Under the pieces are notes generated by a model, which was not told where the DNA came from, ran no database searches, and saw nothing but the letters and a program-made list of their open reading frames with translations. Below are positions 4,419-55,588 of a stretch of DNA of 64,000 nucleotides, piece after piece; the first letter of the stretch is position 1, and each line of letters starts with the position of its first letter. Both the position numbers and the translations under genes were made by a program. The DNA lies in NCBI GenBank assembly GCA_016870475.1, contig VGBO01000006.1, forward strand, positions 4,175 to 68,174, given 5' to 3'. Origin of the DNA: Actinomycetota bacterium (GTDB taxonomy: Bacteria; Actinomycetota; Acidimicrobiia; Acidimicrobiales; CAIXPF01).

Positions 4419-4862
4419 ATGCAGGGCGCAGCGGACCTACGATCCGCGGCGATGGAACCGCACGCGCTTCTCGCTCGCCTCGCCGTGACGATCCGAAACG
4501 ACATCGCCCCGGAGGTCGGTGACGGGTTCGCCCGCACCCAGGCGTTCATGGCGTCGGTCGTCCTCGACAAGCTCGCCCGCCAACTCGAGCTCGCGGCGGA
4601 CCACGCTGCGCTCGAGCACGCCGAGATCGCCGCACTCGTCGTCGATCTCGACGGGCTGCTCACCGGTGCCGATGCGGCGTCGGTGCGCGCAGCCGTGGTC
4701 GCCCTGCCGACGAGCGACCCGACGGCCGGCCTCGCCGCACTCGTTGAGACGGTTCACCGAGGGCGCCCGGACCTCGGGGATGCCCGCACGGACGAGCTGC
4801 TCAGCCGGATCCGAACGGTGCTGCGGTCCCGGGTCGACCGGCAGATGGCGTACGCGTCATGA
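4419..4862 (+). CDS. hypothetical protein
   Basis: ORF 4419..4862. Its stop overlaps the next start as ATGA at 4859-4862, and its composition looks coding. No recognisable motif. Confidence 0.55.
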   Translation: MQGAADLRSAAMEPHALLARLAVTIRNDIAPEVGDGFARTQAFMASVVLDKLARQLELAADHAALEHAEIAALVVDLDGLLTGADAASVRAAVVALPTSDPTAGLAALVETVHRGRPDLGDARTDELLSRIRTVLRSRVDRQMAYAS

Positions 4863-5890
4863 GCTTTCCCGAGATCGACGCCGACCGGATCCGGGTCGTG
4901 CTCGCCGCCCGCCTCGGCGCCGACGACCTGCGGCTCGACGGTGTCGAGCGCATCGCGGTCGGCTGGTCGCACGAGACGTGGTTGTTCGACGGCACGTGGA
5001 CCGACGCCGAGGGTGCGCGCCACACCGAGGGCTTCTGCCTGCGACGTGACCCGGGGAACGCGCTGTTGCGCGAGATGTCGGATCTGTCGGTGCAGTTCGC
5101 GGTGCTGCGGTGTCTCGAAGGGACAGGGGTTCCTGCCCCCCGTGCCCGGTTCTTCTCCGACGATCCCGCCGAACTCGGTGCGCCGTTCATCGTCATGGAG
5201 AAGGTTCCTGGGATCTGCCCGAACCCGTGGGGCCGTGAAGGTCGGGCGTACTACGCGGCGGCCGCGACGCGCGGCGTGCTGCCGGCGAGCTTCACCGATG
5301 CACTCGTCGCACTGCACCGTCTCGACTGGCGCGCAGCGGGTCTCGAGGTGCTGGGCGTTCCACCGCCGGGGGGGTTCGCGCGTGCGGAGATCGCGAAGTG
5401 GCGGGCGCTCATCGAGGCCACCGGCCAGCAGCCCGACCCGATCCTCGTCGACCTGTTGTTCTGGCTCGACGAGCACGCGCCGTCGACGGACCGGCTGGCG
5501 CTCGTCCACGGCGCCTATCGCACCGGCAACGTGCTCATCCACGACGACCGGGTGTCGGCGATCCTCGACTGGGAGACCCAGGTCATCGGCGACCCGATGT
5601 ACGACGTCGCCTACGTCCTGTCGGACCTGAACCGTGAGGGAACCGACCTGCTGTCGAACCTCGTCCCGGGGGACGACTTCGTCCGCCGGTACGAGGCGGG
5701 CACCGGGTTCGAGATCGACCTCGATGCGTGCGCCTACTACCAACGGCTCTACGCCATGCGGTCGGCAGCGTTCTGGATGAGCGCGTCCGCGCTCTACGCG
5801 GATGGTGTGAACACTGACCTGCGTCTCGCCCGCACGGCCTGGTCCGTGCCCGTCGTGCTCGAGAGGGCAGCCCGTGACCTCGGCTACTGA
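4859..5890 (+). CDS. phosphotransferase (aminoglycoside phosphotransferase/choline kinase-like) family protein
   Basis: ORF 4859..5890: ...ALVHGAYRTGNVLIHDDRVSAILDWETQVIGDPMYDVAY (HGD/N catalytic loop plus DWE motif of the APH fold). Confidence 0.85.
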   Translation: MSFPEIDADRIRVVLAARLGADDLRLDGVERIAVGWSHETWLFDGTWTDAEGARHTEGFCLRRDPGNALLREMSDLSVQFAVLRCLEGTGVPAPRARFFSDDPAELGAPFIVMEKVPGICPNPWGREGRAYYAAAATRGVLPASFTDALVALHRLDWRAAGLEVLGVPPPGGFARAEIAKWRALIEATGQQPDPILVDLLFWLDEHAPSTDRLALVHGAYRTGNVLIHDDRVSAILDWETQVIGDPMYDVAYVLSDLNREGTDLLSNLVPGDDFVRRYEAGTGFEIDLDACAYYQRLYAMRSAAFWMSASALYADGVNTDLRLARTAWSVPVVLERAARDLGY

Positions 5891-6869
5891 TCCCAGTTCG
5901 CTCCCCGACCGCCACGACTTCGGCCCCGACGACGACGGCCTCCACACGGCGCACATGAGCGACCGGTGGTGGGAGACGGAGACGTCGTGGTTCTCCTTCT
6001 GCCATCCGGAGCGGAAGCTCGGCGGTTGGTTCTATTCGATGTTCCGGCCGAACATCGGCACGGTCGCCGGTGGTGCGTGGGTGTGGGACGACTCGGCCCA
6101 CCTGCCGTGGGAGGTCCTGTACTCCGCGAACTACACGGCGTTGCGCCTCGACCCGACCACCGACCTCCGCGATGCCACCCTGCCGAACGGCGTGCGGATC
6201 GAGGTGCTCGAGCCGACGATGTCGTACCGTCTCGGCTACGACGACGGCGAACGGTTCCGAGCCGAGCTGCGATTCGACGGTGTGATGCCGCCGCAGCCGC
6301 TCACCGCGGTCGGCGCCGTGTTCGGCTCGGCGCACCACTTCGACCAGCTCGGTCGGGTCACCGGCACGATCGAACTCGGCGGCGAGACCATCGAGATCGA
6401 CTGCATCTCGATGCGCGACCGCACGTGGGGACCCCGCGCCGAGACCAGGCCGCGCCACGCTGCCTACGTGACCGGTGCGGCCGGGCCCGACGACGGCTTC
6501 CTCGCGGTCACCGCGCACGGTGACCCTGTCGACGAGATCACCTACGGGTTCCTGCGACGGGGTGGCCGGACGGTCGGCCTCGCGGGTGGCACCCGGCGGA
6601 TCGAGCGTGATCGCGACGCCGGCTGGATGACCCGGATCGTCGTCGACGCCGTCGACCAGGAAGGCCGTGCACTCCACGCGGTCGGTGAGCCGCTGAGCCG
6701 GATCATCGTGAACCGGCACACGTTCATCGACATCAACAGCCTCGTGCGGTGGGACCTCTCGGGGCTCGAGGGTCACGGCGAGGACCAGGACATGTGGCCG
6801 GTGCACACGTTCGCCGCGGATCGCCGCGCCGCCCGGTCGCGGACCCGGTCAGCGGGCTCCCTGACCTAG
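5874..6869 (+). CDS. conserved hypothetical protein
   Basis: ORF 5874..6869 looks coding throughout (WWETETSWFSFCHPERKLGGWFYSMFRPNIG...ISMRDRTWGPR). Start uncertain: GTG 5874 overlaps the upstream gene by 17 nt, and ATG 5955 is the alternative. Confidence 0.65.
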   Translation: MTSATDPSSLPDRHDFGPDDDGLHTAHMSDRWWETETSWFSFCHPERKLGGWFYSMFRPNIGTVAGGAWVWDDSAHLPWEVLYSANYTALRLDPTTDLRDATLPNGVRIEVLEPTMSYRLGYDDGERFRAELRFDGVMPPQPLTAVGAVFGSAHHFDQLGRVTGTIELGGETIEIDCISMRDRTWGPRAETRPRHAAYVTGAAGPDDGFLAVTAHGDPVDEITYGFLRRGGRTVGLAGGTRRIERDRDAGWMTRIVVDAVDQEGRALHAVGEPLSRIIVNRHTFIDINSLVRWDLSGLEGHGEDQDMWPVHTFAADRRAARSRTRSAGSLT

Positions 6870-6878
6870 GGTGCGGCC

Positions 6879-7769
6879 GTGCGCGACCGTCAGCACATCG
6901 CCCATCCGACGTACCTCCGCTACATCGACAAGTTGCGGGAGTACTACGCGGCGTCGGGCTACCCGATGCCCTACAAGTGGGTGCACTTCACCGACGTCCC
7001 GTTCACGCCGTTGCCGAAGCCGCTGTCGGAATGCCGTGTCGGGCTCGTGACGACGGCGTTCCCGATGTCGGTGGCCGGAGCGGAACGCTCGCCGAAGGAG
7101 CCGTACGCGATGCCGACCGACCCGGCACCCGACCGGCTCTACACCCAGGACCTGTTCTGGGACAAGGACGCGACGCACACCGACGACGTGAACTCCTTCG
7201 TGCCGCTCGCGGCGATGAGCGAGTTCGTCGCCGAGGGTCGGGTCGGCTCGTTGGCTCCCCGGTTCTACGGGGTTCCCACCGACTACTCGGCGCGACGCAC
7301 CGAGCAGCGCGACGCGCCGGCGATCACCGAGCTCGCGCTCGAGGACGCGGTCGACGTCATGCTGCTCACACCGCTTTGACCGGTGTGCCACCAGACGGTC
7401 AGTTTGACCGCCCGACACCTCGAGGCCGCCGGGATCCCCACGGTCGTGATCGGCTCCGCCCGAGACATCGTCGAGGAGTGCGGCGTCCCCCGGTTCGTGT
7501 TCCAGGACTTCCCGCTCGGCAACCCGATCGGCAAGCCATGGGACCACGCCATGCAACGCGCCACCACCGGGATGGCGCTCGACCTCCTCGAGCGGGCGTT
7601 CGCCCCACGGACCACCGTGCAGACCCCGTTCCGCTGGGGCGACGACGCGTGGCGGGAGAACTTCATGCGAGCCGACGACTCGAACCGGGCGGAACTCGCC
7701 CGGGCCGGAGAGGAACGCCGTCGGGCGCAGGCCGAAGCGACCACCCGGGGCATCAAGCGCGGTGGCTGA
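6879..7769 (+). CDS. glycine/sarcosine/betaine/D-proline reductase selenoprotein B (GRDB) family protein, candidate selenoprotein with TGA(7377-7379)=Sec
   Basis: ORFs 6879..7379 and 7383..7769 share one frame and are separated only by TGA plus CCG. The junction reads ...DAVDVMLLTPL-U-PVCHQTVSLTARHLEAAGIPTVVIGSARDIVE..., a U-x-x-C redox motif as in the GRDB family. Neither half looks like a complete gene. Confidence 0.7.
7382..7419 (+). promoter_or_regulatory. SECIS-like stem-loop downstream of the in-frame UGA
   Basis: Lower stem GGUGU (7382-7386) pairs with ACACC (7415-7419). Upper stem CGGUCA (7396-7401) pairs with UGACCG (7405-7410), capped by GUU (7402-7404). The apical loop lies 23-27 nt after the UGA. 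Confidence 0.45.
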
Positions 7770-8157
7770 ACGCAACGTGCTCGGCGGCGAGCTCGAGGTG
7801 TGCGGCACCGACCCGATGACGGGTTGGCACCGCGACGGCTGCTGCAGCACCGGTCCGGAAGACCTCGGCAGCCACACGATCTGCGCGGTGGTCACCGCCG
7901 AGTTCCTCGAGCACCAGCGCAGCATCGGCAACGACCTGCAGACGCCGATGCCCGCCTACCGGTTCCCCGGCCTCGTCCCCGGTGACCGCTGGTGCGTCAC
8001 CGCACGGAACTGGTTGCGCGCCTTCCACGACGGCGCCGCAGCACCGGTCGTGCTGGCGGCGACGAACGTGAAGGTGCTCGACCTCGTGCCGCTCGACGCG
8101 CTGCGCCGCCACGCCGTCGACGTGCCGGGTGACCTGTCGGGCCTCGACCTCGCCTGA
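7762..8157 (+). CDS. DUF2237 family protein
   Basis: ORF 7762..8157: NVLGGELEVCGTDPMTGWHRDGCCSTGPEDLGSHTICAVVTAEFLEHQRSIGNDLQTP...FPGLVPGDRWCVTA is the DUF2237 signature. It overlaps the upstream gene by 8 nt. Confidence 0.85.
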   Translation: MAERNVLGGELEVCGTDPMTGWHRDGCCSTGPEDLGSHTICAVVTAEFLEHQRSIGNDLQTPMPAYRFPGLVPGDRWCVTARNWLRAFHDGAAAPVVLAATNVKVLDLVPLDALRRHAVDVPGDLSGLDLA

Positions 8158-17850: not shown

Positions 17851-19008
17851 TCAGCCGAAGGCGCCGGCGGCCCGCAACGCCGCGATGCGGGCATCGTCGA
17901 AACCCCACGCTCGCAACGCGTCCTCGCCACCCGCTCCCGGGCTCGGCGAGCGTCGCACGATCTCGGAGGGCGTGCGGCTGAAGCGCGGCGCCGGCGCCGG
18001 CTGGGTGGTCCCGTCGACCTCGACGAACGCGTCACGAGCGACGTTGTGGGGATGCATCGGCGCCTCGAGCAGGTCGAGCACCGGCTGCACGTTGTCGTCG
18101 TCGCCGTCGAAGAGCTCGACCCAGGCGTCCCGTGGGCGGGTGGCGAACAGGGCGGCCATCCGCTCGCGGTAGGCCGGCCAGTTCGCGCGGTCGGAGGGAT
18201 CACCGAGGCCCTCGAGGTCGATGCCGGACTTCGCCACGAAGTTGCGCAGGAACTTCGGCTGCAGCAGTGCCGTGGACACGAACTTCCCGTCCGCGCAGCG
18301 GTACACCGCGTACCGCCAGTCACCACCGTCGACGAGGTTCGCCTGCCGTTCGTGCATCCAGGTCCCGCCGGCGAGGTTGCCGTACACGTACGCCATCAGA
18401 TTCAGCGCGCCGTCGGAGATCGCCGCGTCGACGACCTGGCCCTTGCCGGACCGCTGCGCCTCGAGGAGCGCGGCGAGCATCCCCATCGCGAGGAACGTCC
18501 CGCCACCCCCGAAGTCGCCGGCGAGGATCAACGGCGGGACGGGCGGCCGATCCGCCTCGCCGATCGCCCACAACGCTCCGGTGATCGAGAGGTAGTTCGC
18601 GTCGAACCCGGCCCGCTGCGCGAACGGACCGTCCTGACCCCACCCGGTCATGCGGCCGTAGACGAGGCGCGGGTTGCGGGCCAGACACACGTCCGGTCCG
18701 AGCCCGAGTCGTTCCGCGACCCCCGGCCGCATCCCCTCGATGAGACCGTCGGCCCCCTCGACGAGCTCGAGCACCGTCGCCACCGCGGCGGGATCCTTCA
18801 GGTCGAGCCGGACCGAACGACGGTTGCGGTACAGGTACCGGTACTCATACGACGGGTAGCCGTACTCGACCTCCTCGAGGCGGTCGACGAGGACGACGTC
18901 CGCCCCCATGTCGGACAGCAGCATCCCGGCGAAGGGACCCGGGCCGATGCAGAACAGCTCGACGATCTTGATCCCCTGCAACGGTCCCACGGCATCCCCC
19001 TCGCCCAT
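17851..19008 (-). CDS. family III CoA-transferase (CaiB/BaiF; alpha-methylacyl-CoA racemase-like)
   Basis: Part of ORF 17851..19272, ATG 19008: GPLQGIKIVELFCIGPGPFAGMLLSDMGADVVLVDR...NRRSVRLDLK...GRMTGWGQDGP...GFDANYLS. Confidence 0.85.
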   Translation of the reverse strand: MGEGDAVGPLQGIKIVELFCIGPGPFAGMLLSDMGADVVLVDRLEEVEYGYPSYEYRYLYRNRRSVRLDLKDPAAVATVLELVEGADGLIEGMRPGVAERLGLGPDVCLARNPRLVYGRMTGWGQDGPFAQRAGFDANYLSITGALWAIGEADRPPVPPLILAGDFGGGGTFLAMGMLAALLEAQRSGKGQVVDAAISDGALNLMAYVYGNLAGGTWMHERQANLVDGGDWRYAVYRCADGKFVSTALLQPKFLRNFVAKSGIDLEGLGDPSDRANWPAYRERMAALFATRPRDAWVELFDGDDDNVQPVLDLLEAPMHPHNVARDAFVEVDGTTQPAPAPRFSRTPSEIVRRSPSPGAGGEDALRAWGFDDARIAALRAAGAFG

Positions 19009-19071
19009 ACGTGTGTCGCGCGCACCGTAGCGCCGGGCGGACAGTCGGGGGGTCGTCGGTAAGCTTCCGGC

Positions 19072-19845
19072 GTGCAGCAGCGCCCCGTCGCCCTCGTCAC
19101 CGGGGCAGGTTCCGGCATTGGTGCGGCGACGGCGAACCGTCTCGTCGCCACCGGCCACGACGTGGTCGCCGTCGGACGCCGGCCCGAACCGCTCGAGGCC
19201 CTGCGGGCCGACCACGGGGAGGCGATCGAGGTGTGCCCGGCCGACCTCGCCGATGCGGAACGCGTCGTTCACGTGGTGCGCGACGTCGCCGCCCGGCGCG
19301 GGCGACTCGACGTGGTGGTGAACAACGCGGGTGATGCGTGGCAGGCGGGCATCGAGGACACCGACCCCGCCCGCTTCCGGTCACTCGTCGAGGTGAACCT
19401 GGTCGGTCCGGCGGCCGTCGTGCACGCCGCGTGGCCGACGTTCCTCGCGCAGCGGCGCGGGTGCATCGTGAACGTGTCGTCGCTCGCGCAGTTCGACCCG
19501 TTCCCCGGGTTCTTCGCCTACGCGCCGTCGAAGGCGGGCCTGCACCTGCTCACCGTGGTCGCGGCGAACGAGGGCGGCCCGCACGGTGTGCGCGCCTTCA
19601 CGGTGGCACCCGGCGTCGTCGACACGCCGCTGCACCGGCGCCTCGTCCCCGACGGGGTCGACGACGCGTTCCGTCTCGACGCCGACACGGTCGCCGGCCT
19701 CGTCGTGGCGTGTGTCGCCGGCGTCCACGACGACGCCGTCGGCACGACCCTCGCCGCCGTGACGCCCGCCGTGGCCCCCTTCGTCCGCGACTGGATGGAC
19801 CGCAACCCGAACGGGGGCGTCCGGATCATGGAGCTGCACCGATGA
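19072..19845 (+). CDS. SDR family oxidoreductase (candidate pterin/sepiapterin-type reductase by context only)
   Basis: ORF 19072..19845: [18 protein letters not shown], and YAPSKAG (YxxxK). First gene of an ATGA-coupled operon with PTPS and FolE. Confidence 0.85.
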
Positions 19846-22740: not shown

Positions 22741-23979
22741 TCAGCGGTCCCGGGCCACCGCCGGGGTCAGGCGCACCTCGCGGAACGGCACGTTCTTGTC
22801 GACCTCGGGTTCCTTCGGCAGGCCGAGGATCCGTTCGCCGATGATGTTCCGCTGGATCTGGTCGGTACCCCCGCCGATCGAGGTGAAGTAGGCGTTCAGC
22901 ATCGAGTACGTGCAATCCGCCGCCCGGGCGGAATCCGAACCGCCGAGCAGCGCCTCCGCCCCGAGGATGTCGGCCTGCACCCGGGCGGCGTAGTGGAGGA
23001 TGCCGGACATGGCGAGCTTGCCGAGCGACGCCACGGGCGACGACGACCCCTGCTTCAGCTCGGCGCGGGCGCGCATGCCGTTCCAGGTGTTCACCGTGCG
23101 CATGCAGTGGAGGCGGGCCAGTGCCTGGCGGACCATCGGGTCGTCCGTGCGGCCGAGCTCGCGGGCGAGGTCGGTAAGCACAAGGTCCGGAACGGGCGCG
23201 CTCGCCTCCGAGGTGGGGTCACGGTCGGCGTCGGGCTTCGCGGTGCCGGAACGCTTCTGCACGACGCCCATCACCGCGCGCTCGTACATGAGGGCTTCCT
23301 GCAGCACCCACCAGCCGGCGTTCAGCTCGCCGAGCATGTTCGCGTGCGGGACCCGGGCATCGGTGATGAACACCTCGTTGAACCGGGAGTCGCCGGTCGC
23401 CTGACGCAGCGGCCGCACGTCCACGCCCGGCTGGCGCATCGGGAAGAAGAAGAACGTGATGCCCCGGTGCTTCGGAACGTGGAGGTCGGTCCGCGTGATG
23501 AGCAGTGCGTACTCGGCCTGCCGTCCGCCGGAGGTCCACACCTTCTGGCCGTTCACGACCCACTCGTCGCCGTCGCGCACGGCACGTGTCTGGATGCTCG
23601 CGAGGTCCGAGCCGGCACCCGGTTCGCTGTAGAGCAGGCACATGTCGATGTCGCCGAGCAGCAGCGGACGCATCACCCGGGCCTTCAGGTCGTCCGAGCC
23701 GTACTGCAGCACCGTGCCGGCCCACAGGTTGGTCACGTCCTGCGCGGACCCGGGGGCGTCGACGGCACGGAACTCGGCGTCGACGACCCGGCCGAGCGCA
23801 GCGGGGAGTCCACGGCCGTGCCAGCGCTCCGGCCAGCTCGGCGCCGCCCAACCGGCGTCGACCACCGCCTCGAGGAACGGTCGCCGCGGTGCACCCGGGG
23901 TCCAGTGATCCGCAAGCCATGCCCGGACCTCGGCCCGGACCGCCTCCTCGGATGCGATGTCGGCGACTGCGGTGTCCAC
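22741..23979 (-). CDS. acyl-CoA dehydrogenase family protein
   Basis: Part of ORF 22741..24066. GGGAGG lies 6 nt before GTG 23979: LLYSEPGAGSDLASIQTRAVRDGDEWVVNGQKVWTSGG...IGGGTDQIQRNIIGERILGLP. Confidence 0.9.
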   Translation of the reverse strand: MDTAVADIASEEAVRAEVRAWLADHWTPGAPRRPFLEAVVDAGWAAPSWPERWHGRGLPAALGRVVDAEFRAVDAPGSAQDVTNLWAGTVLQYGSDDLKARVMRPLLLGDIDMCLLYSEPGAGSDLASIQTRAVRDGDEWVVNGQKVWTSGGRQAEYALLITRTDLHVPKHRGITFFFFPMRQPGVDVRPLRQATGDSRFNEVFITDARVPHANMLGELNAGWWVLQEALMYERAVMGVVQKRSGTAKPDADRDPTSEASAPVPDLVLTDLARELGRTDDPMVRQALARLHCMRTVNTWNGMRARAELKQGSSSPVASLGKLAMSGILHYAARVQADILGAEALLGGSDSARAADCTYSMLNAYFTSIGGGTDQIQRNIIGERILGLPKEPEVDKNVPFREVRLTPAVARDR

Positions 23980-24060
23980 GTTCGGCCTCCCGGCGTTGCG
24001 TCGGCGTGCGACCGACGATGCCGCGCATCGTACCGCGGGGCCCTCGGCTACGGTCCGGCC

Positions 24061-25068
24061 ATGCACGGTCGGAAGTACTGGATGATGCTGCCGGCGAACC
24101 GCACGGCGACCGAGACCGCCGGGCTCGCCGCGGAGGCGGAGCGTCTCGGTCTCGAAGGGGTCTTCTCCATCCAGCTGTCGTCGAACCCCTTCGTGCCGCT
24201 CGCTGCGGCGGCGGTGCCCACGACCACGCTCCGGCTCGGGACCGGGATCGCGCTCGCCCTCACCCGGTCACCCCTCGAGACGGCGTTCGCCGCGCTCGAC
24301 CTCGACCACCTCAGCGAGGGCAGGTTCACCCTCGGCCTCGGCACGTCGGTTCGCTGGTGGCACGAGCAGCTCTACGGCGTCCCCTACGACCGGCCCGTCG
24401 CCCGGCTCGCCGAAGCCGTGCGGATCGTCAAGGCGGTCACCTCGGGTCGGGCCCGCGAGACCGGCCGCATCGACGGGGAGTTCTGGCAGGTCGACCTCAC
24501 GAACCTCGCCATGCGCCCGCCGTTGCGCCCCGACCTGCCGGTGTGGGTCGCGGCCCTGCGCACCCCGCTCGTGAAGGTCGCCGCAGCGGAGGCCGACGGG
24601 CTCATCGGGCACCCGTCGTGGTCGGTCGACTGGGCGCTGCAGCAGATCAACGGGCCGTACGCCACCGGGCTGCGGACCGCCGGGCGTGACCGGTCCGACG
24701 TCGAGATCAACCTGTGGCACGTCGTCGCCCCGAACCCCGACGTCGCCGAGTCGGTGCACGACGCGAAACGGCACGTCGCCACGTACGCGTCGATCGCCCA
24801 GTACGAGCCGTACTTCGCCGCCCACGGCTTCGGCGCCGAGGCCCGACGGTTGCAGGAGGCCGTCGCCGCGGGTGACCGCAACGCCGCAGACCTCGTGCCC
24901 GACGACATGGCCCGCACGTTCGTGCTGTGCGGCACACCCGGTGACGTCGCCCGCCAGCTCGAGCCGCTGTGGGAGGTCGCCGACTCGATCTGCCTGCAGT
25001 CCCCGCCGCTCCGTGCCGACGCGAAGGCCGCGTACGACCAGCGGATCGCCGAGACGTTCTACGGCTGA
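24061..25068 (+). CDS. LLM class (luciferase-like, probably F420-dependent) oxidoreductase
   Basis: 3' part of the 1034-aa ORF 21964..25068, ATG 24061: LRLGTGIALALTRSPLETAFAALDLDHLSEGRFTLGLGTS...VWVAALRTPLVKVAAAEADGLIGHP. Confidence 0.9.
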   Translation: MHGRKYWMMLPANRTATETAGLAAEAERLGLEGVFSIQLSSNPFVPLAAAAVPTTTLRLGTGIALALTRSPLETAFAALDLDHLSEGRFTLGLGTSVRWWHEQLYGVPYDRPVARLAEAVRIVKAVTSGRARETGRIDGEFWQVDLTNLAMRPPLRPDLPVWVAALRTPLVKVAAAEADGLIGHPSWSVDWALQQINGPYATGLRTAGRDRSDVEINLWHVVAPNPDVAESVHDAKRHVATYASIAQYEPYFAAHGFGAEARRLQEAVAAGDRNAADLVPDDMARTFVLCGTPGDVARQLEPLWEVADSICLQSPPLRADAKAAYDQRIAETFYG

Positions 25069-38553: not shown

Positions 38554-39135
38554 ATGCCGACCTACGCCGTCATCGGGAACGACAGGGAACGGGCGGACGC
38601 CGTCGCCCGTGCGACCGGCGGGACCGCCTACCTCGCCGTCGACGAGTCGGCGGCACGTGACGACGTGCCGTTCCGGACGCTCGTCGTCGCGGATGTCGCC
38701 GATCCTTCCGCGCTCGCCGGCGCAGACGAGATCGGGACCTACCGGGTGCACGTGCGGGTGATCCGCCCGCTCGCCGACCCGCCGCCGGCCGGGACGACCA
38801 GCGAGGGCGTGGTGGCGGTGTTCGGGATGCGACGCCACCCCGATCTCACCCACGAGCAGGCCGACGCGCACTGGCGGGACGTGCACGCACCGCTCGCGTT
38901 GCACCATCACGTCGGCATGTGGCACTACGAGCAGTGCTCGGTTGACGAAGTCGTCCGCGGTCCCTCCTACGACGGGTTCGCCCTGTGTGCGTTCGCGTCG
39001 CTCGACGACTTGCGGGACCGGTTCTACGACGGGCCCGAGGGTCGGGTCGCGATCGGCGCCGACGTCGCGAGCTTCGCCGACACGGCCGCGTCGCCCCGAC
39101 GGGTGATCTGCACCGAGACCGTCAACCGACGCTGA
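38554..39135 (+). CDS. EthD domain-containing protein
   Basis: ORF 38554..39135, with GGGAGGA before the ATG. C-terminal half: VAVFGMRRHPDLTHEQADAHWRDVHAPLA...FALCAFASLDDLRDRF. Confidence 0.65.
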   Translation: MPTYAVIGNDRERADAVARATGGTAYLAVDESAARDDVPFRTLVVADVADPSALAGADEIGTYRVHVRVIRPLADPPPAGTTSEGVVAVFGMRRHPDLTHEQADAHWRDVHAPLALHHHVGMWHYEQCSVDEVVRGPSYDGFALCAFASLDDLRDRFYDGPEGRVAIGADVASFADTAASPRRVICTETVNRR

Positions 39136-41620
39136 TCTCGACGGCGCCGGACGCCAGCAGGTCGCCGACCGCGTCCGCGTCGAGGCCGAGGATCTCGGTG
39201 AGCACCTCGAAGGAGTGCTCGCCGACGCAGGGTGCCGCACGACGCAGGTGACCCGGCGTCATCGACAGGCGGGCCTGCATGCCCGTGTAGGGCACCGTGC
39301 CCATCACGGTGTGGTCGAGCGGTACGAAGAACCCGAGGTGGGCGAGGTGCGGGTCGTCGAGCAACGCCCCGGGCGCGTACACCGGTGCTGCTGCGACACG
39401 CGGCTGCAACCGGGTGAAGACGTCGAGCGCCTCCTGCGTGGCCGTCCAGGCGGCGATCGCGGTGTCGATCCGGTCCTCGGCGGCGCGACGGCCGTCGAGG
39501 GTGCGCAGCGTCGGGTCCGTCGCCCACGCCGGTGCGCCCATCACCTCGACCAGCGCCGCCCACGCGGCGTCGTCCTCGCACGCGATCGCCAGCCAGCGTT
39601 CCCCTTCGAGTCCGGCCTCCGGACCACGGCGCGACGGGTAGATGCCGTGGGGGACCATGGCGTGGTGGCGGTTGCCGTTGCGCGTCGGAACCCGCCCGTT
39701 GACGGTGGTGTCGAGCAGTTCGACCTCGAGGAACTGCAACGCTGCCTCGAACTGGGCGAGGTCGATGTGGGTGCCCTCACCGGTGCGGCGCCGCCGGTCG
39801 AGCGCAGCGAGTACGACGCTCGCGCAGAAGCGCTGGCAGACGAAGTCGGTGTACGCGCCGTAGATCATCGTCGGATCACGATCCGGCCAGCCGGTGATCT
39901 CGTAGAACCCCGACAGGGCGGCCAGCAGCTGACCGAACCCCCGGTAATCGGCGTTCGGCCCGGTCTGCCCCTGCATGCAGGTCGACAGCATCACGAGCGA
40001 CGGGTTGCGTGCCGCGAGCGTGGCGTGATCGAGGCCGAGCCCGCGGAGGGTGTGCGGGGTGAAGCTCTCGATGACGACGTCAGCCCAGTCGGCGAGGCGC
40101 AGCGCGACCTCGCGGCCGCCGCCGGTGGACAGGTCGAGCCCGATACCGAGCTTCGACGCGTTGAAGTCACCGTAGAACTGGCTGCGATTCAGCCCACTGA
40201 CCCCGTCGAGGAACGGCGGAGCTGCCCGGAGCACGTCCGCGCGCACGCTCGAGTCGAGACGGACGACGGTCGCGCCATGGTCGGCGAGGTAGCGCGCCGT
40301 GAGCGGGCCGACCCCGACCCACGACATGTCCCACACCTTGAGGCCGGCCAGCGCTCCCGCACCAGGCGACCATCCGGGTCGTTCGGGCTGGTCGGGGAGC
40401 GCCACCGCACCGGCGGATGCGTGCGCCTCGGCGAGCACCGCGGTCGTGTGCTCACCGATCCCGGGCGCCCGGTTCGCCGCCCGCAGCGCGACCGTCGACG
40501 GTCGGGCCCACGCACCCGGATGGCGGACGACACCGAACCTGCCGTGGTCGACGTCGTCCCAGAACTCGCGTGCAGCGAGCTGCCGATCACCGGGCAGGTC
40601 GGCGGCGGTGTTCACCGGTGCGAGGAGCCAGCGGTGCTCGACGGCGTGGGCGTACAACTCGGCTTTCGTGCGGTTGCGGAACGCAGCCGTGCAAACAGCC
40701 TCGACCGCCGAGTTGTGCGCGACACGGATCCCGTCGCGTTCGAGGTCGTCGAGACTGATCGTGGTCACGTCGACGCCCGACAAGATGTCGGGGACCGCGA
40801 ACCCGCCGGCCGCCGCCCACTCGACGATCGTCGCGAAGCCCGGTCCGGCGAGCGGGCCCGGCCCTGCCATGTAGACGACGTGGCCGTCGGCACAGGGGTA
40901 GATCTGCTTCGCCCGACCGGGCTGGTAGGCGACACCGGGTCCGATCCGCACGAACTCGGCGCCCTCGAGCATCTTCGCGGTCGGAGCGTTCATCGCCGTG
41001 CGGATCGCTGCGGTCCACGCAGCGACGTCGACGTGTTGACCGGCACCGCCGGCGCGCACGTGGTGCAGGGCGACGAGCGTGTGCACGACCGCTTCGACGG
41101 ACGCATGGCCGAGGAACTGTTCGCTGCCGATGCGAATCGGTGGCCGGTCGACGTCCCCGGTGAGCCACACCGCACCGGACAGCGCACCGAGCACGAGGTC
41201 GGGCGCGCGGAAGTGCGCGTACGGGCCGTCGAGCCCGAACGGGGAGATCGACGTGACGACGAGCCGCGGGTGACGGCGGTGCAGCTCGTCGAGGTCGACC
41301 CCGCGCGCGGCGAGCCCGCACGGACCGTCGGACTCGAGCAGCACGTCGGCACCGGCGAGGAGATCCCACAGTTCCGGCGACACGGTCCCGGGCGGTCCGG
41401 GGTCGAGCACGACGGAGCGTTTGCCGCGGGCGTGTGCCCACCAACGCAGGGACCCCTCCGGATCGACGACGTCACCGGCGAACGGGCCGATCCGGCGGTC
41501 CGGATGCCCGCCGGGCGGCTCGACGGCGATCACATCCGCGCCGAGGTCGGCGAGGACCCGGCCGGCGAGCCACCCGAACGACGTCGTGAGGTCGATCACC
41601 CGACAGTCGGCGAGCAGCAT
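39122..41620 (-). CDS. fused double family III CoA-transferase (two CaiB/BaiF modules in one 832-aa protein)
   Basis: ORF 39122..41620. Module 1: CRVIDLTTSFGWLAGRVLADLGADVIAVEPPGG. Module 2, from about residue 440: LAGLKVWDMSWVGVGPLTARYLADHGATVVRLDS...NRSQFYGDFNASKLGIGLDL. Confidence 0.85.
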   Translation of the reverse strand: MLLADCRVIDLTTSFGWLAGRVLADLGADVIAVEPPGGHPDRRIGPFAGDVVDPEGSLRWWAHARGKRSVVLDPGPPGTVSPELWDLLAGADVLLESDGPCGLAARGVDLDELHRRHPRLVVTSISPFGLDGPYAHFRAPDLVLGALSGAVWLTGDVDRPPIRIGSEQFLGHASVEAVVHTLVALHHVRAGGAGQHVDVAAWTAAIRTAMNAPTAKMLEGAEFVRIGPGVAYQPGRAKQIYPCADGHVVYMAGPGPLAGPGFATIVEWAAAGGFAVPDILSGVDVTTISLDDLERDGIRVAHNSAVEAVCTAAFRNRTKAELYAHAVEHRWLLAPVNTAADLPGDRQLAAREFWDDVDHGRFGVVRHPGAWARPSTVALRAANRAPGIGEHTTAVLAEAHASAGAVALPDQPERPGWSPGAGALAGLKVWDMSWVGVGPLTARYLADHGATVVRLDSSVRADVLRAAPPFLDGVSGLNRSQFYGDFNASKLGIGLDLSTGGGREVALRLADWADVVIESFTPHTLRGLGLDHATLAARNPSLVMLSTCMQGQTGPNADYRGFGQLLAALSGFYEITGWPDRDPTMIYGAYTDFVCQRFCASVVLAALDRRRRTGEGTHIDLAQFEAALQFLEVELLDTTVNGRVPTRNGNRHHAMVPHGIYPSRRGPEAGLEGERWLAIACEDDAAWAALVEVMGAPAWATDPTLRTLDGRRAAEDRIDTAIAAWTATQEALDVFTRLQPRVAAAPVYAPGALLDDPHLAHLGFFVPLDHTVMGTVPYTGMQARLSMTPGHLRRAAPCVGEHSFEVLTEILGLDADAVGDLLASGAVEISVG

Positions 41621-41671
41621 GGCCGTGTTCTAGCCGCGTCCGATCGGGCGCGGTGCCGCTACGGTGCGCAG

Positions 41672-42323: not shown

Positions 42324-43199
42324 TCAGCGGGACGGGAGCCGGCCGAGGAAATCGATCACCGCACCCGAGAAGATGTCGTTGCGGTCGCCGGCGACCATGT
42401 GCGAGGCGTCGGTCACGTTCACGTACTCGGCGTGGGGGCACAACTCGAGGAAGCTGCGGGCACCGTCCTCGCTCAGCACATCGGACAGACCGCCGCGGAC
42501 CAGCAGGGTCGGCACGGCCAGCGCCCGTGCGTTCGCCGCCTGCCGCTGGTACATCGCCTCGAGGTCGGGGCGCCCGGAACGCCACGTCGGATCCCAGTGC
42601 CAGCGGTACCGACCGTCGTCGCCGAGCCGCACGTTCTTCGCGAGCCCGTCCGTCGAACGGGGCCGCTCCCGGTGTGGCTGGTACGACGCGATCGCATCCG
42701 CGACCTCGTCGAGCGATGCGAAGCCGTCCGGCCGGCCCTCCATGAACTGCAGGATCCGGTCGACACCTTCCGGTTCGAGGCGTGGCGCAGTGTCGACGAG
42801 CACGAGCGCCCGACCGGGGACGTGTCCGCCGCCGATCGTCTCGAGGCTCACCCCACCGCCCATGGATGCGCCGACGAGCACCGGGTTCGGATCGCCGAGC
42901 TGGGCGACGAGCTCGACGAGGTCGGCGACCATCAGGTCGATGCCGTACGCGTCGGTCCACGACGAGTCGCCGTGCCCACGGGCGTCGAACGCGATCGCGT
43001 TCCACCCCTGTGCGCCGAGGCGTTCCCCCGCGCCTTTCCATGCGTGACGGGTCTGCCCACCGCCGTGCATGAGGAGCACGACGGGGCCCGCCGGATCACC
43101 CCAGCGGTCGCCGGCAAGGGTCCCACCGCCGTGACCCCGCCAGGTGCAACCCGGTTCCGGGGTGCCGGGGAGTCGCCGACCGGCGTTGCGAGCCGTCAC
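42324..43199 (-). CDS. alpha/beta hydrolase
   Basis: Part of ORF 42324..43505. GTG 43199 overlaps the upstream stop as GTGA: VVLLMHGGGQTRHAW...DARGHGDS...LVGASMGG...DASHMVAGD. Confidence 0.85.
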   Translation of the reverse strand: MTARNAGRRLPGTPEPGCTWRGHGGGTLAGDRWGDPAGPVVLLMHGGGQTRHAWKGAGERLGAQGWNAIAFDARGHGDSSWTDAYGIDLMVADLVELVAQLGDPNPVLVGASMGGGVSLETIGGGHVPGRALVLVDTAPRLEPEGVDRILQFMEGRPDGFASLDEVADAIASYQPHRERPRSTDGLAKNVRLGDDGRYRWHWDPTWRSGRPDLEAMYQRQAANARALAVPTLLVRGGLSDVLSEDGARSFLELCPHAEYVNVTDASHMVAGDRNDIFSGAVIDFLGRLPSR

Positions 43200-44140
43200 G
43201 AACCGCTCGCCTCGAAGGCGGCGCGCAGTGCGCCGGCGACGACGTCCTGGGCCTCGTCGGCCTGGTCGATCAGCCGCGACATCGAGAAGAAGCCGTGGAA
43301 CTGGCCGGGGTAGCGCCGCAGGTCGGTGGGTACGCCCGCGGCGCTGAGCTTCTCGGCGTAGGCGACGCCCTCGTCGTGGAGCGGGTCGTACCCGGCGACG
43401 ATCACCGTCGCCGCCGCGACACCGGTGAGGTCCGTGGCGCGGTTCGGCGCCGCGTAGGGGTCGGCGCGGTGGGCCGCCTCCGGGGCGTAGAGGTCGTGGA
43501 ACCACACCATGACGTCCTGGGTGAGGCCGTACCCCTCGGCGTTCGCCACCATCGACGCGGTCGTCGGGTCGAAGTCGGTCACCGGGTAGACGAGCGCCTG
43601 GTGGGCGAGGGTGGGGCCGCCCCGGTCACGGCACATGAGCGCGACCGCCGCGGCGAGGTTCCCGCCGGCGGAATCGCCGCCGACCGCGATCCGGTCCGCA
43701 CGGCCGCCGAGCGAGGCGGCGTTCGCCGCCGCCCACACGGTCGCCGCGTAGCAGTCCTCCGGTCCGGCGGGGAAGGGGTGCTCCGGCGCGAGCCGGTAGT
43801 CGACGGAGACGGTGATGCACCCGGTCTTCTCCGTCAGCGCCTTGCAGACACGGTCGTGGGACGTGATCGACCCGACGACCCAGCCACCCCCGTGGAAGAA
43901 CACGAGCACACCGAGGTCCTCGCCGCCCGACGTCGGCCAGTAGATCCGGATGGGGAGAGCGTCGCCGTCGGGGCCGGTGATGCTGCGGTCCTCGGTGCGT
44001 GCCGCCTCGATCGGGCGACCGGCGTCGGGCTGCCGGTCGAAACCGGCTCGGGCCCGTTCGTGTCCGACCTCACGGAAGGTCGGCAGGTTCAGCTCTCGCA
44101 TGCGTTCGAGCACGCGAGCGGCTTGCGGGTCCAACGTCAT
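43196..44140 (-). CDS. alpha/beta hydrolase fold-3 esterase/lipase (hormone-sensitive lipase family)
   Basis: Part of ORF 43196..44182, ATG 44140: VFFHGGGWVVG (HGGG oxyanion motif), VGGDSAGGNLA (GDSAG), DPLHDEG, FHGF. Confidence 0.9.
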   Translation of the reverse strand: MTLDPQAARVLERMRELNLPTFREVGHERARAGFDRQPDAGRPIEAARTEDRSITGPDGDALPIRIYWPTSGGEDLGVLVFFHGGGWVVGSITSHDRVCKALTEKTGCITVSVDYRLAPEHPFPAGPEDCYAATVWAAANAASLGGRADRIAVGGDSAGGNLAAAVALMCRDRGGPTLAHQALVYPVTDFDPTTASMVANAEGYGLTQDVMVWFHDLYAPEAAHRADPYAAPNRATDLTGVAAATVIVAGYDPLHDEGVAYAEKLSAAGVPTDLRRYPGQFHGFFSMSRLIDQADEAQDVVAGALRAAFEASGS

Positions 44141-44253
44141 GGCGCACCGTCCCTCTCGTCCCGGCGTACCGCCCCTCGGCACACCGACCGGCCGAGCCTA
44201 GGCTGCGCCCCGCATGGCGGGCAGGTGACCGCCACCGTGTTCGGGAGGACACC

Positions 44254-51677: not shown

Positions 51678-52816
51678 CCACGACGAAGCGACCGATGGAG
51701 GGTGTGCGCATCCTCGACCTCGCCGGGATCAGCGGTGCGAACGGCACCCGGCTCCTCGGCGCGCTCGGCGCCGAGGTGATCGTCGCCGAACCGCCGAGCG
51801 GGCACACGATGCGGTCGTGGGGTCCGTTCGTCCCCGGATCCGCTGCGCCCGAGGGTTCGCTGTGGTGGGCGTACTTCGCGCAGGGGAAGAAGTCGGTCGT
51901 CGTCGCCGACCTCGACGCGCTGCGGGCGCTTGCGGCGACCTGCGACGTCGTCGTCGAGGATGCCGGGGTCGGTGTGCTCGACGAGGTCGCGGCGTCGATG
52001 GGCCCCGAGGTCATCTGGATCTCGGTCACCCCGTTCGGACGAACCGGGCCCCGAGCCCACTGGAGGGGTTCGGAACTCGTGGGCTGGGCGTCGTCCGGAC
52101 TGCTGCACACCTTCGGGTTCCCGGACCGGCCGCCGGTGATGCCGGCGACGCCAATCCAGTTCGGCCAACACGTGATCGCCCTCGACGTCGCGTTGTCGGC
52201 GCAGCTCGCGCTGCGGGTGCGCCGCCGCACCGGTCGTGGGCAACGTGTCGACCTGTCGCTGCAGGAATCCCTGCTGTTCGTCGGCCCGGAGACCGGTGCG
52301 CCGCTGTTCCTCGACGACCTCGTGCCGCGTTCGCGCCCCGGGAACCGTCGGGCGGTGAGCCGACCGTTCGGTCTGTACCCGTGCGCGGACGGGTTCGTGT
52401 CCGTCGTCGTCCTGCAACCCGCGCACTGGCGGGCGATGGCCGAATGGATCCGCGACGTCACCGGCGAGGACTCCCTCCTCGAGGAGGCGTTCTTCGACAT
52501 CGCCGTGCGGTGGGAGGCCGCCGAGTTCGTCGACGCGATGACCGAGGCGGTGACGATGTCGATGAGCAAGCTCGACCTGTTCATCGAGGGCCAGCGGCGC
52601 AACATCCCCATCACCCCGGTGAACACCGTCGCCGACCTGCGGAGCGACCCGCACCTGCAGGCCGCCGGCTTCTGGCGCACGCACGAGGTCCACGGCACCG
52701 ACGGCGTCGTCGGCCCGGGGGCACCGTTCCGGGTGTCGGCCGACTGGTGGTCGTTCTCGCGGGCGCCGCTGCTCGGGGAGCACACCGAGGCGGTGCTCGG
52801 CCCGCTGCGCGGCTGA
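51674..52816 (+). CDS. family III CoA-transferase (CaiB/BaiF), subunit/paralog 2
   Basis: ATGA overlap at 51674-51677, with GGGGAGGA upstream: MEGVRILDLAGISGANGTRLLGALGAEVIVAEPPSG...GKKSVVVADL.... Confidence 0.85.
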   Translation: MTTTKRPMEGVRILDLAGISGANGTRLLGALGAEVIVAEPPSGHTMRSWGPFVPGSAAPEGSLWWAYFAQGKKSVVVADLDALRALAATCDVVVEDAGVGVLDEVAASMGPEVIWISVTPFGRTGPRAHWRGSELVGWASSGLLHTFGFPDRPPVMPATPIQFGQHVIALDVALSAQLALRVRRRTGRGQRVDLSLQESLLFVGPETGAPLFLDDLVPRSRPGNRRAVSRPFGLYPCADGFVSVVVLQPAHWRAMAEWIRDVTGEDSLLEEAFFDIAVRWEAAEFVDAMTEAVTMSMSKLDLFIEGQRRNIPITPVNTVADLRSDPHLQAAGFWRTHEVHGTDGVVGPGAPFRVSADWWSFSRAPLLGEHTEAVLGPLRG

Positions 52817-55532: not shown

Positions 55533-55588
55533 GGGGCGACTGTAGGTCGCCCCGACCGGACGCCGCGTACGTGGGTTAGCGTGCGCGC

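Follow-up and report, generated by a model that had tools for sequence, protein, structure and literature searches.

The DNA analysed here is a stretch of 64,000 nucleotides (the window), in which two open reading frames on the forward strand, 6879-7379 and 7383-7769, were seen from the sequence and its translation to share a common frame whose sole interruption is a TGA at 7377-7379. This frame opens with the GTG at 6879 and runs to the TGA at 7767-7769, the internal TGA being followed by a single CCG codon and then by the GTG at 7383. Reading through it gives the junction ...DVMLLTPL-*-PVCHQTVSLTARHLEAAGIPTVVIGSARDIVE... and a product of 296 residues, in agreement with the earlier note, which had described two ORFs of one frame separated only by TGA and CCG. 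The third-position GC content amounts to 0.91 in the first half and 0.89 in the second half, in the same frame, as is typical of coding sequence in this genome of 70% G+C, and the orthologue L001 carries an ATG start at the position equivalent to the GTG at 6879.

The frame is flanked by closely spaced genes of the same operon (Table 1). The order of both upstream genes is kept in the lineage, and all of the lineage's contigs have the DUF2237 gene beside the split gene; as a neighbour across the wider family, DUF2237 was not found. The other same-frame ORF pairs of the window (3519/4407, 21442/22741, 26880/27585 and 43981/45157) were rejected as unrelated adjacent genes or spurious ORFs.

Table 1. 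Coordinates of the split gene, its predicted recoding elements and its operon neighbours (window positions)
Feature	Position	Strand	Remarks
APH-family phosphotransferase, upstream operon gene	4859..5890	+	Pfam PF01636, E=2.5e-28; 3' end overlaps next gene
DUF7065/DUF7064 protein, upstream operon gene	5874..6869	+	Pfam PF23213, PF23212; stops 9 nt before selenoprotein start
PrdB-like selenoprotein CDS (probable)	6879..7769	+	296 residues including Sec167; GTG start, TGA stop 7767-7769
In-frame UGA, Sec167 (predicted)	7377..7379	+	on the Sec/Cys column of the family and of true PrdB
U-P-V-C redox motif (predicted)	7377..7388	+	Sec167...Cys170, then His171-Gln172; from family alignment
Possible SECIS lower stem (prediction)	7380..7432	+	CCGGUG.UGC with GCC.GCCGG around the hairpin
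SECIS upper hairpin (predicted)	7396..7410	+	stem CGGUCA 7396-7401 with UGACCG 7405-7410; loop GUU 7402-7404
DUF2237, downstream operon gene	7762..8157	+	Pfam PF09996, E=6.7e-50; GTG start overlaps selenoprotein stop by 8 nt

Taken alone, each half is a fragment of a family of ~291-297 aa proteins, so that neither is a stand-alone gene, as had been supposed earlier, and the prediction that automatic callers would split the gene holds for every public assembly of the lineage, in which calls of 166 + 128 aa are found. Because both halves are such fragments and the same split occurs lineage-wide, their arrangement goes beyond chance. On the reading favoured here, with a probability of roughly 0.88, 6879-7769 is a single gene encoding a stand-alone PrdB-like selenoprotein, and its division at the UGA is the work of the gene callers.

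Position of the UGA and relation to PrdB and GrdB

In the full-length Cys homologues of the window protein (homologue search, 3587 matches), the TGA at 7377-7379 aligns to the first Cys of a near-invariant CPVCHQ motif. The best matches among these homologues have E-values of 1e-85 to 2.5e-117, with 50-66% identity and 90-99% coverage. In the alignment, all 54 Cys homologues have C167, and C167, P168, V169, C170, H171 and Q172 are invariant across 55 family members. The same column is occupied in the named D-proline reductase PrdB proteins by the Cys of G-C-G-T-C-H-R, i.e. it is the U/C-x-x-C-H column, with C170 and H171 being invariant in the true PrdBs too. The codon therefore falls on the Sec/Cys column whether judged by the family's own motif or by that of PrdB, and the window protein carries its U/C-x-x-C motif in a conserved PrdB column. 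It also has all the other invariants of the CPVCHQ family, namely Y15, R20, Y23, W34, D95, S137, R139, T141 and D145 ahead of [U/C]PVCHQ and R179, PTV, GxAxD, R205, F208, D210, PLG, G218, P220, T246, W253 and W258 after it.

The best family match of the protein is the NCBIfam PrdB model TIGR04483 (E=1e-24, residues 42-250 aligned to positions 20-231 of the 238 in the profile), which, together with the shared U-x-x-C-H motif and the names given to its homologues (‘PrdB’ by JGI, ‘glycine reductase’ by RefSeq), would suit a genuine PrdB, or the B subunit of a glycine, sarcosine or betaine reductase, with its partners encoded elsewhere in the genome. The score, however, is 87.3 bits against an equivalog cut-off of 300, and those for Pfam GRDB (PF07355; 16.2 versus 22) and TIGR01918 (35.6 versus 65.45) lie below their cut-offs as well, only the C-terminal part of each of the latter two profiles being matched (E=1.6e-10 to 6e-08). 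The hosts of the family, moreover, are mostly Reyranella, Bradyrhizobium, Pseudomonadales, Acidimicrobiales and such lineages. Profile and annotation searches agree with the earlier observation that grdA/grdE/prdA-type partners are missing from the window: none of prdA, prdC, prdD, prdE, grdA, grdE, grdC and grdD occurs in the 64 kb, and around 207 family loci no prd or grd partner gene is found recurrently.

Compared with PrdB of Clostridium sticklandii and Clostridioides difficile, the window protein shows homology over essentially the whole PrdB length, including the Sec/Cys column with its U/C-x-x-C-H motif and the residues R179, E182, G185, T188, R205, P212, G214, G218, P220 and Q226. It differs from the named PrdBs in sharing only 24-26% identity with them, in its motif (U-P-V-C-H-Q versus U-G-T-C-H-R), in the replacement of the PrdB GFMGGGG segment by VPT(D/E)YSxRxT, in additional segments at both ends (a helix of ~25 aa at the N-terminus and a charged one of ~45 aa at the C-terminus) and in having no prdA or prdC partner. 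To GrdB/GrdF/GrdH there is weak homology in the C-terminal third, which bears the Sec motif, whereas the window protein is ~140 residues shorter, comes without grdA, grdE, grdC and grdD genes and has UxxCHQ where GrdB is described as UxxCxxC. Judging by these sequence characters, the protein is neither a D-proline, nor a glycine, sarcosine or betaine reductase, and a genuine PrdB or GrdB with distant partners is very improbable.

No solved-structure homologue was found by sequence. The AlphaFold model of a Cys homologue (P0002) is confident (pLDDT 89) and has no significant neighbour in the PDB (best E = 0.016, TM <= 0.31), and structure therefore gave no mechanistic lead.

Conservation of the UGA and of a downstream hairpin

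The identical TGA is present, at 100% identity, in six independent Logan assemblies and is kept in six further contigs at 90% nucleotide identity that come from different projects (ENA, Logan and two NCBI MAGs, GCA_964453335.1 and GCA_030831525.1). It had been considered earlier that the TGA might be a miscalled TGC or TGT, which would make the gene an ordinary Cys homologue. A one-base difference would suffice for such a sequencing or assembly error, and Cys forms are common; the recurrence of the TGA across these assemblies and orthologues, and the surrounding codon choices, which match the Sec forms and not the Cys forms, speak so clearly against it that this explanation can practically be dismissed.

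Of the 15 members listed from the cluster of N-terminal halves (n=18), 14 have 166 aa and share the position of the stop, and the last is a fragment of 89 aa from a contig of 1 kb. The orthologues at 90% nucleotide identity contain no frameshifts or extra stops, and in the comparison with L001, at that same identity, the C-terminal half has accumulated 27 synonymous versus 9 non-synonymous changes; at this distance, the C-terminal half is under purifying selection. Further afield, across many phyla, at least 120 species genomes have a TGA in the Sec/Cys column, with ~125-135 further in-frame codons after it, and the genome scan places Myxococcota and Deltaproteobacteria loci among these Sec forms; the window's own genome is not one of the 120 listed.

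These data bear directly on the possibility that the gene is inactivated or split, the TGA acting as an ordinary stop that leaves a 166-residue fragment bereft of its active-site residue, perhaps with a 128-residue peptide re-initiated at the GTG at 7383. Such a gene would yield exactly the 166 + 128 aa of the gene callers, and a GTG does stand one codon past the stop. Against it are the in-frame C-terminal half with its purifying selection, the placement of the stop exactly on the catalytic Cys column, the UGA-specific hairpin described below and the circumstance that at least 120 species would need the same ‘nonsense mutation’. In addition, only 32 of the 111 UGA forms have GTG as the +2 codon, compared with 57 that have GTC, and a re-initiation site is therefore not conserved at this place. 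A split gene is accordingly unlikely, though it is the least unlikely of the alternatives weighed here.

The hairpin that lies downstream of the UGA in the favoured, read-through gene has a 6-bp stem and an apical GUU loop located 22 nt past the UGA. Folded alone, it is of marginal stability (-7.6 kcal/mol, z = -1.9). [quoted passage not shown] The window hairpin falls within all of these limits, within the last one barely (-7.6 versus -7.5 kcal/mol). Its codons are rare, AGU accounting for 3.8% of Ser and UUG for 5.2% of Leu in the window's genes, and its sequence is identical in every orthologue at 90% nucleotide identity. The possible lower stem around it comes from the predicted minimum-free-energy structure of 7380-7434, which reaches -23.8 kcal/mol and is weakly significant (z = -1.8), and the 74-nt fold after the UGA has no stability beyond that of shuffled sequence (z = -0.39). 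Since the gene is 70% G+C, the latter statistic is uninformative, and Sec forms were therefore compared with Cys forms instead.

Two hairpins were distinguished in the family, class A (CAGAC-CGUGA-GUCUG) and class B (CGGUCA-GUU-UGACCG), the window hairpin belonging to class B. One or the other GU-looped hairpin occurs downstream of the UGA in 105 of 111 Sec forms, whereas either stem is possible in 17 of 96 Cys forms, with GU in just one of their tabulated loops (CGU); this contrast is highly significant (Fisher p = 3e-32). The Ser codon within the hairpin is AGU in 94/111 Sec forms versus 5/96 Cys forms. The class A helix is 95% paired in an unselected sample (n=39 Sec forms), with compensatory changes at 3 of its 6 pairs; none of 500 shuffles reaches the observed value, and slid controls are 1-40% paired. 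Class B is the minority hairpin (12/111 Sec forms, i.e. the window and 11 others) and shows one compensatory G-C to C-G change, in a set that was itself selected for pairing. Within the family, the hairpin thus marks the UGA forms specifically, and its contrast between Sec and Cys forms, together with the AGU codon, provides a simple and specific signature for calling the Sec forms of this family.

With regard to the bSECIS model, the family hairpins share the small apical loop starting with G then U, the upper stem of 5-7 bp, the placement of the loop (17 nt after the UGA in class A, 22 nt in class B and hence in the window) and a free energy <= -7.5 kcal/mol. What sets the family apart is that it has two hairpin registers on one conserved peptide, H-Q-T/S-V-S-L, of which the window has the rarer. 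The use of this rarer register, its marginal stability and the choice of the class B set for pairing count against the favoured reading. No Rfam model was found to cover either register.

Decoding of the UGA

The recoding of the UGA as selenocysteine, as the earlier note had proposed, is supported by its place in the Sec/Cys column, by the presence of the TGA in independent assemblies and by a SECIS-type hairpin specific to the UGA forms. Genes for the Sec machinery are not linked to the PrdB-like gene: selA, selB, selD and a genuine selC are lacking in the 64 kb window, a motif scan for SelA, SelB and SelD found none in the 254 fetched sequences (1.65 Mb in total, window included) and ARAGORN, applied to the sequence around 120 Sec-form loci, revealed no tRNA-Sec. 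Within the window, ARAGORN does report a tRNA-SeC at 43367-43462, which lies antisense within the CDS of an Abhydrolase_3 esterase (E=1.9e-77) and has no Rfam tRNA or tRNA-Sec match either at the gathering threshold or at E<=10; on these two grounds it was dropped as spurious. That this genome possesses SelA, SelB, SelC and SelD, that Sec is actually inserted and that the enzyme chemistry is of the kind outlined below are presumptions.

In the proposed mechanism, a ribosome arriving at the UGA at 7377-7379 would encounter the mRNA hairpin at 7396-7410, which would act as a bacterial SECIS by means of its GUU loop and recruit SelB-GTP-Sec-tRNA(Sec), such that selenocysteine would be inserted in place of termination. 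Translation would then go on to 7769, and the resulting enzyme of 296 residues would bear U167-P-V-C170-H-Q at its active site. If it works as PrdB and GrdB do, the selenol of Sec167 would be the attacking nucleophile, and Cys170 might resolve the intermediate, giving a selenenyl-sulfide which a thiol reductant would re-reduce.

The UGA could alternatively be read through as Cys, Trp or Gly by a suppressor or near-cognate tRNA, or be recoded in a non-canonical manner without SelA and SelB, and the spurious nature of the sole tRNA-SeC call in the window would be in line with this. The hairpin, however, has the features of a SelB-binding bSECIS, namely the GU loop and the 22-nt spacing, and is common to the UGA forms of many phyla; furthermore, the family is a recognised Sec/Cys family, and within Acidimicrobiia at least one order has documented Sec machinery. 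Read-through without selenocysteine is consequently judged a little less probable even than a split gene, and decoding of the UGA as Sec is retained.

Family background and implications

A literature search under ‘PrdB-like’ or ‘GrdB-like’ selenoprotein found nothing relevant. Metagenomic selenoproteome surveys (Zhang, Fomenko & Gladyshev 2005, PMC1088965; Zhang & Gladyshev 2008, PMC2398784) nevertheless contain a family called ‘PrdB, UxxC, pfam07355’, with Sec and Cys forms, which is among the most abundant selenoprotein families of oxic ocean metagenomes, the counts being 42 Sec genes for the Sargasso Sea and, for GOS, 235 Sec and 110 Cys genes. Selenoproteome surveys also list ‘proline reductase’ selenoproteins in Anaeromyxobacter and Geobacter, which fits the Myxococcota and Deltaproteobacteria loci of the window family. 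Since the UxxC Sec motif, pfam07355, the existence of Sec and Cys forms and the oxic habitat are the same in both, the window family is presumably the ‘PrdB, UxxC’ family of these surveys, the two being equated by motif, Pfam assignment and habitat and not by sequences. The differences are that the surveys (PMC1088965; PMC2398784) do not set the stand-alone ~295-aa CPVCHQ group apart from clostridial PrdB, distinguish no SECIS classes and, in the text consulted, mention no Acidimicrobiales members. The novelty is lower than had been implied earlier, the Sec form of ‘PrdB’ having figured in selenoproteome surveys since 2005; with the family and its selenium form already catalogued, the case is an ordinary one. 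The ‘PrdB’ counts of the surveys, in turn, probably represent largely the stand-alone paralogue and not Stickland-type proline reduction.

With respect to function, no universally conserved partner gene was found among the family loci. In 27 of the 140 loci with enough downstream sequence (~19%), the next gene downstream on the same strand encodes a family III (CaiB/BaiF-type) CoA-transferase, and genes for enoyl-CoA hydratase, acyl-CoA dehydrogenase and acyl-CoA ligase recur nearby. The Sec form with such a CoA-transferase neighbour is present in a cultured bacterium, Enhydrobacter aerosaccus ATCC 27094 (locus L061); the recurrent CoA-transferase neighbour constitutes a first lead to the substrate. 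It may be, with odds somewhat short of even, that the stand-alone U/C-P-V-C-H-Q proteins form a distinct and very widespread family of mostly aerobic bacteria, whose members are not subunits of proline or glycine reductases, do without a pyruvoyl partner, perhaps take part in acyl-CoA-linked metabolism and have a two-register SECIS of their own.

In practical terms, all public copies in the lineage carry a pair of hypothetical proteins, one of 166 aa and the other of 128 or 121 aa; these entries need to be joined and labelled as a selenoprotein, as do their counterparts in at least 120 species genomes. An Acidimicrobiales-like actinobacterium is thereby added to the hosts of a highly abundant environmental selenoprotein family, and if the stand-alone proteins are indeed a family of their own, the window would contribute a case, from an actinobacterium, of a selenoenzyme with a new activity.

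Reading frame and conservation of the TGA

The sequence read over 6700-7900 and the translation of 6879-7769 agree that ORFs 6879-7379 and 7383-7769 share one frame, which opens at GTG 6879, ends at the stop 7767-7769 and contains a sole internal stop, TGA 7377-7379, followed by CCG and then GTG 7383. The split-gene observation of the earlier note is confirmed, and the junction of the 296-residue read-through product is as first described there, ...DVMLLTPL*PVCHQTVSLTARHLEAAGIPTVVIGSARDIVE.... Within a window of approximately 70-74% G+C, third-position G+C in the frame of the gene reaches 0.91 in the N-terminal and 0.89 in the C-terminal half, which is the bias of real genes. The expectation that automatic callers would split the gene is also borne out, with the two parts being filed in public data as two hypothetical proteins. 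The C-terminal fragment is given 128 aa from GTG 7383 in most records and 121 aa in NCBI and one JGI record (proteins P0168 and P0179), a disagreement about the start that is typical of an artefactual gene model.

The TGA is genuine rather than miscalled, being identical in six independent Logan metagenome assemblies, and it is also kept at 90% nucleotide identity in the ENA contig k141_9921776, in Logan contigs and in the NCBI MAGs GCA_964453335.1 and GCA_030831525.1; the orthologue contigs at this identity show neither a frameshift nor an additional stop. Compared with one of them, L001, the C-terminal half differs at 27 synonymous and 9 non-synonymous codons and the N-terminal half at 29 and 13, respectively. 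The N-terminal fragment belongs to a 90% cluster of 18 members; of the 15 listed, 14 have a length of 166 residues, and the other, from a 1 kb contig, is a fragment of 89 residues. Codons 160-178, the 19 that surround the UGA, are free of substitutions, synonymous ones included, across the 90% orthologues, which is supportive only, as the gene has one other invariant run of approximately 15 codons. Judged from these sequence comparisons, neither a sequencing error, to which we give next to no credence, nor a pseudogene fits the data.

Sec forms and the hairpin downstream of the UGA

A scan of one genome per bacterial or archaeal species with the pattern TGA-CCN-GTN-TGY-CAY-CAR, 36 bases, G[IV]PTV found at least 120 Sec-form loci. 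The family context D-x-A-x-L-x-x-x-U-PVCHQ is present in all 120 loci listed, most of which, where they extend far enough, continue for approximately 125-135 in-frame codons past the TGA. Hosts among the loci listed include Reyranella, the cultured Enhydrobacter aerosaccus ATCC 27094, Rhodospirillaceae, Hyphomicrobiales, Pseudomonadales, Deltaproteobacteria and Myxococcota, Acidimicrobiales, Dehalococcoidia, Methylomirabilia and Binatia, and the window protein is 33-64% identical to the listed Sec forms.

As a control, metagenome contigs matched by the same pattern with TGY (Cys) at its first codon were used, and 111 unique Sec forms were compared with 96 unique Cys forms. Two hairpin classes were distinguished: class A (C-A-G-A-C / loop CGUGA / G-U-C-U-G), whose loop starts 17 nt past the UGA, and class B, which pairs in another register (CGGUCA / loop GUU or GUC / UGACCG) and has its loop 22 nt past it. 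All class A pairs are formed in 96 of the Sec forms versus a single Cys form, all class B pairs in 12 Sec forms (the window included) versus 16 Cys forms, and either hairpin in 105 versus 17 (Fisher p = 3e-32); the 16 Cys forms with a class B stem have mostly GCC-type loops, with GU in one tabulated loop only (CGU). The Ser codon of the hairpin is AGU in 94/111 Sec and 5/96 Cys forms (Fisher p = 3e-34) and AGC in 2/111 and 56/96, respectively, and AGC instead of AGU would break an A-U pair of the stem. The two mutually exclusive registers lie over the same conserved peptide H-Q-T/S-V-S-L (loci L008-L127, +12 to +34 after the TGA), and six Sec forms (L008, L062, L074, L100, L116 and L119) have one mismatch in both.

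For covariation, an unselected sample made up of the window and the first 38 loci was used; in it RNAalifold recovers the helix base, and the class A helix is 95.3% paired, with 3/6 pairs changed on both sides; 0/500 shuffles reach the observed pairing, and slid controls are 1-40% paired. One covarying pair joins the third base of the His codon, a synonymous position, with position 1 of the Val/Ile codon (C-G 24, U-A 8). In the class B set a single pair is compensatory, G-C to C-G (L071, L096), and four pairs have G-U changes; the 100% pairing of this set is circular because it was chosen for full pairing. The window hairpin, with predicted energies of -7.6 kcal/mol alone and -23.8 kcal/mol with a possible lower stem, agrees with the published bacterial SECIS model (PMC13188914) in all four respects, loop, stem, spacing and free energy, the last only just. 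Its loop is built from AGU-UUG, codons used for 3.8% of Ser and 5.2% of Leu in the genes of the window, and its AGU is the only one in the gene. The 74-nt fold past the UGA is not significant against shuffles, which carries little weight in such G+C-rich sequence.

That the locus is a pseudogene, or a split gene yielding two peptides, is very unlikely, given that selection downstream of the UGA is purifying, that the stop falls on the catalytic column, that the hairpin is specific to UGA forms, and that the +2 codon is a possible start, GTG, in only 32/111 Sec forms. The selenocysteine recoding proposed earlier is supported by the TGA on the Sec/Cys column, its conservation and the hairpin, and we put at roughly 0.88 the probability that hairpin 7396-7410 is bound by SelB-GTP-Sec-tRNA(Sec) and UGA 7377 decoded as Sec; insertion of some other residue at the UGA is given a very slim chance. 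The resulting enzyme would carry the motif U167-P-V-C170, in which, by analogy with PrdB and GrdB, the selenol may attack the substrate and Cys170 may resolve a selenenyl-sulfide, which a thiol system would reduce again.

Among practically all plausible ORFs of the 64-kb window, Pfam scans found no selA/B/D, and the flanks of the fetched loci contain no sel genes or tRNA-Sec. The tRNA-SeC (anticodon TCA) called by ARAGORN in the window is a false positive that could be mistaken for proof of selC: it lies antisense within a strongly supported esterase gene and is covered by that gene's Pfam match, an Rfam search of the whole window at gathering thresholds finds no RNA family, and one of 43200-43650 gives neither tRNA nor tRNA-Sec even with the limit relaxed to E<=10. 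Another order of Acidimicrobiia, the Actinomarinales, has documented Sec machinery (bioRxiv 10.64898/2026.04.03.716425), which makes the trait plausible for the class, with nothing direct on this genome.

Family identity and gene neighbourhood

Profile searches were run on the 296-residue product with Cys substituted for the stop. NCBIfam TIGR04483 (D-proline reductase PrdB) matches residues 42-250 to profile positions 20-231 of 238 (E=1e-24) at 87 bits against a curated cut-off of 300; the GrdB, GrdF and GrdH models match the C-terminal part only, all below cut-off, and Pfam GRDB gives 16.2 bits, short of its gathering score of 22. A collection of 5.8 billion proteins yielded 3587 matches, the best 120 of which are nearly all full-length (approximately 281-311 residues) and 50-66% identical, come from Acidimicrobiia, Bradyrhizobium and many metagenomes, and, where named, go under 'glycine reductase' or 'D-proline reductase PrdB'.

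In 21- and 55-member alignments the TGA aligns with the first Cys of an invariant C-P-V-C-H-Q, in agreement with the claim that it occupies the Sec/Cys column, and the same column in the named PrdBs of Clostridium botulinum, C. sporogenes, Sporolactobacillus and Caldicellulosiruptor is the Cys of G-C-G-T-C-H-R; this is the U/C-x-x-C position given for PrdB in selenoprotein surveys (PMC1088965, PMC2398784). In the alignment of the family with named PrdBs (A5), this column holds Trp in P0181, a public PrdB cluster representative with 59 members, most likely a Sec UGA that was read under genetic code 4, and Arg in the Spiroplasma chinense PrdB (P0223). The window protein differs from true PrdB in being only 24-26% identical to it, and its family, which lacks the GFMGGGG segment, is extended by an N-terminal helix and by a charged helix of approximately 45 residues at the C-terminus. 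A confident AlphaFold model of the Cys homologue P0002 (m17265fcbc87f; pLDDT 89.4, pTM 0.89) has no significant neighbour in a PDB structure search (best E = 0.016, TM <= 0.31), and no PDB chain searched by sequence matches the family; the fold is therefore structurally uncharacterised, and a PrdB/GrdB-type fold appears, from this model, to be unrepresented among the solved structures compared.

The same Pfam scans found no grdA/C/D/E or prdA/C/D/E genes in the 64-kb window, in line with the earlier statement on grdA/grdE/prdA-type partners. A true proline or glycine reductase subunit is highly improbable, as the protein scores below the family cut-offs and has no such operon partners in the window.

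Features of the window around and beyond the selenoprotein gene
Feature	Position	Strand	Remark
APH-family kinase	4859-5890	+	same strand as selenoprotein gene
DUF7065/7064 protein	5874-6869	+	ends 9 nt before selenoprotein start
Predicted PrdB-like selenoprotein gene	6879-7769	+	in-frame TGA
Hairpin, class B register	stem 7396-7401/7405-7410, loop 7402-7404	+
DUF2237	7762-8157	+	overlaps selenoprotein stop by 8 nt
Three family III CoA-transferases and three acyl-CoA dehydrogenases	17851-19380 (-), 39122-41629 (-), 51179-52816 (+); also 22741-24267 (-), 55580-56797 (+), 60256-61410 (+)
Abhydrolase_3 esterase gene	43196-44197	-
ARAGORN tRNA-SeC	43367-43462	+	false positive

The genes from kinase to DUF2237 form a closely packed run on one strand, the order of which is conserved within the lineage; Tad-type T2SSF genes lie further upstream and a flavin monooxygenase downstream on the other strand. 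In GCA_964453335.1 (locus L248:7573-9912, CAYVOK010000002.1), the DUF7065 gene and the split selenoprotein gene are separated by the gene for a 779-aa H+-pyrophosphatase, so the upstream genes are not obligatorily coupled to the selenoprotein. Also present in the window are esterases, short-chain dehydrogenases, a P450, a Rieske oxygenase and luciferase-like monooxygenases, and it is unusually rich in CoA-transferases and acyl-CoA dehydrogenases, a catabolic neighbourhood typical of soil/freshwater Acidimicrobiales-like actinobacteria; for one acyl-CoA dehydrogenase of the window, the best hits bearing a name come from Acidimicrobiales, Acidimicrobiaceae and Ilumatobacteraceae MAGs (70-76% identity), and the source is probably an uncultured actinobacterium of Acidimicrobiales-like type. 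The stop-to-stop ORF at 39122-41629 (-) spans 835 aa, with CoA_transf_3 covering only residues 427-806 and two matched stretches reported; it probably contains either a shorter true gene or a tandem pair of CoA-transferase genes that share a frame.

None of the genes flanking the 207 family loci is adjacent in all of them. Most often the neighbour is a family III (CaiB/BaiF-type) CoA-transferase (PF02515, E=8e-120) of approximately 397 aa, starting on the same strand approximately 0-300 nt past the stop in 27 of the 140 loci with enough downstream sequence (12 Sec, 15 Cys), as in L061 of Enhydrobacter aerosaccus (488-1682 relative to the TGA), L020, L030, L077, L176 and L196. Less often than the CoA-transferase, the neighbours include enoyl-CoA hydratase (15 loci), short-chain dehydrogenases, acyl-CoA dehydrogenases, acyl-CoA ligases, luciferase-like monooxygenases, TctC-type binding proteins and ABC ATPases. 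From the CoA-transferase linkage, acyl-CoA-type substrates can be proposed as a weak lead.

Earlier surveys and significance

In earlier surveys, 'proline reductase PrdB' (UxxC, pfam07355) is the third most abundant Sargasso Sea selenoprotein family with 42 Sec genes (PMC1088965), and in GOS, where 235 Sec genes and 110 Cys genes were counted, it is among the most abundant (PMC2398784); 'proline reductase' selenoproteins are also listed for Anaeromyxobacter and Geobacter (PMC1794560). The Sec form is taken as already catalogued because these descriptions, compared as descriptions rather than as sequences, fit the family found here, which has been lumped with clostridial PrdB. What is new is a member from an Acidimicrobiales-like lineage with the minority SECIS register. 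The finding is a correct and useful annotation fix that adds one more example of a known but functionally unexplained environmental selenoprotein.
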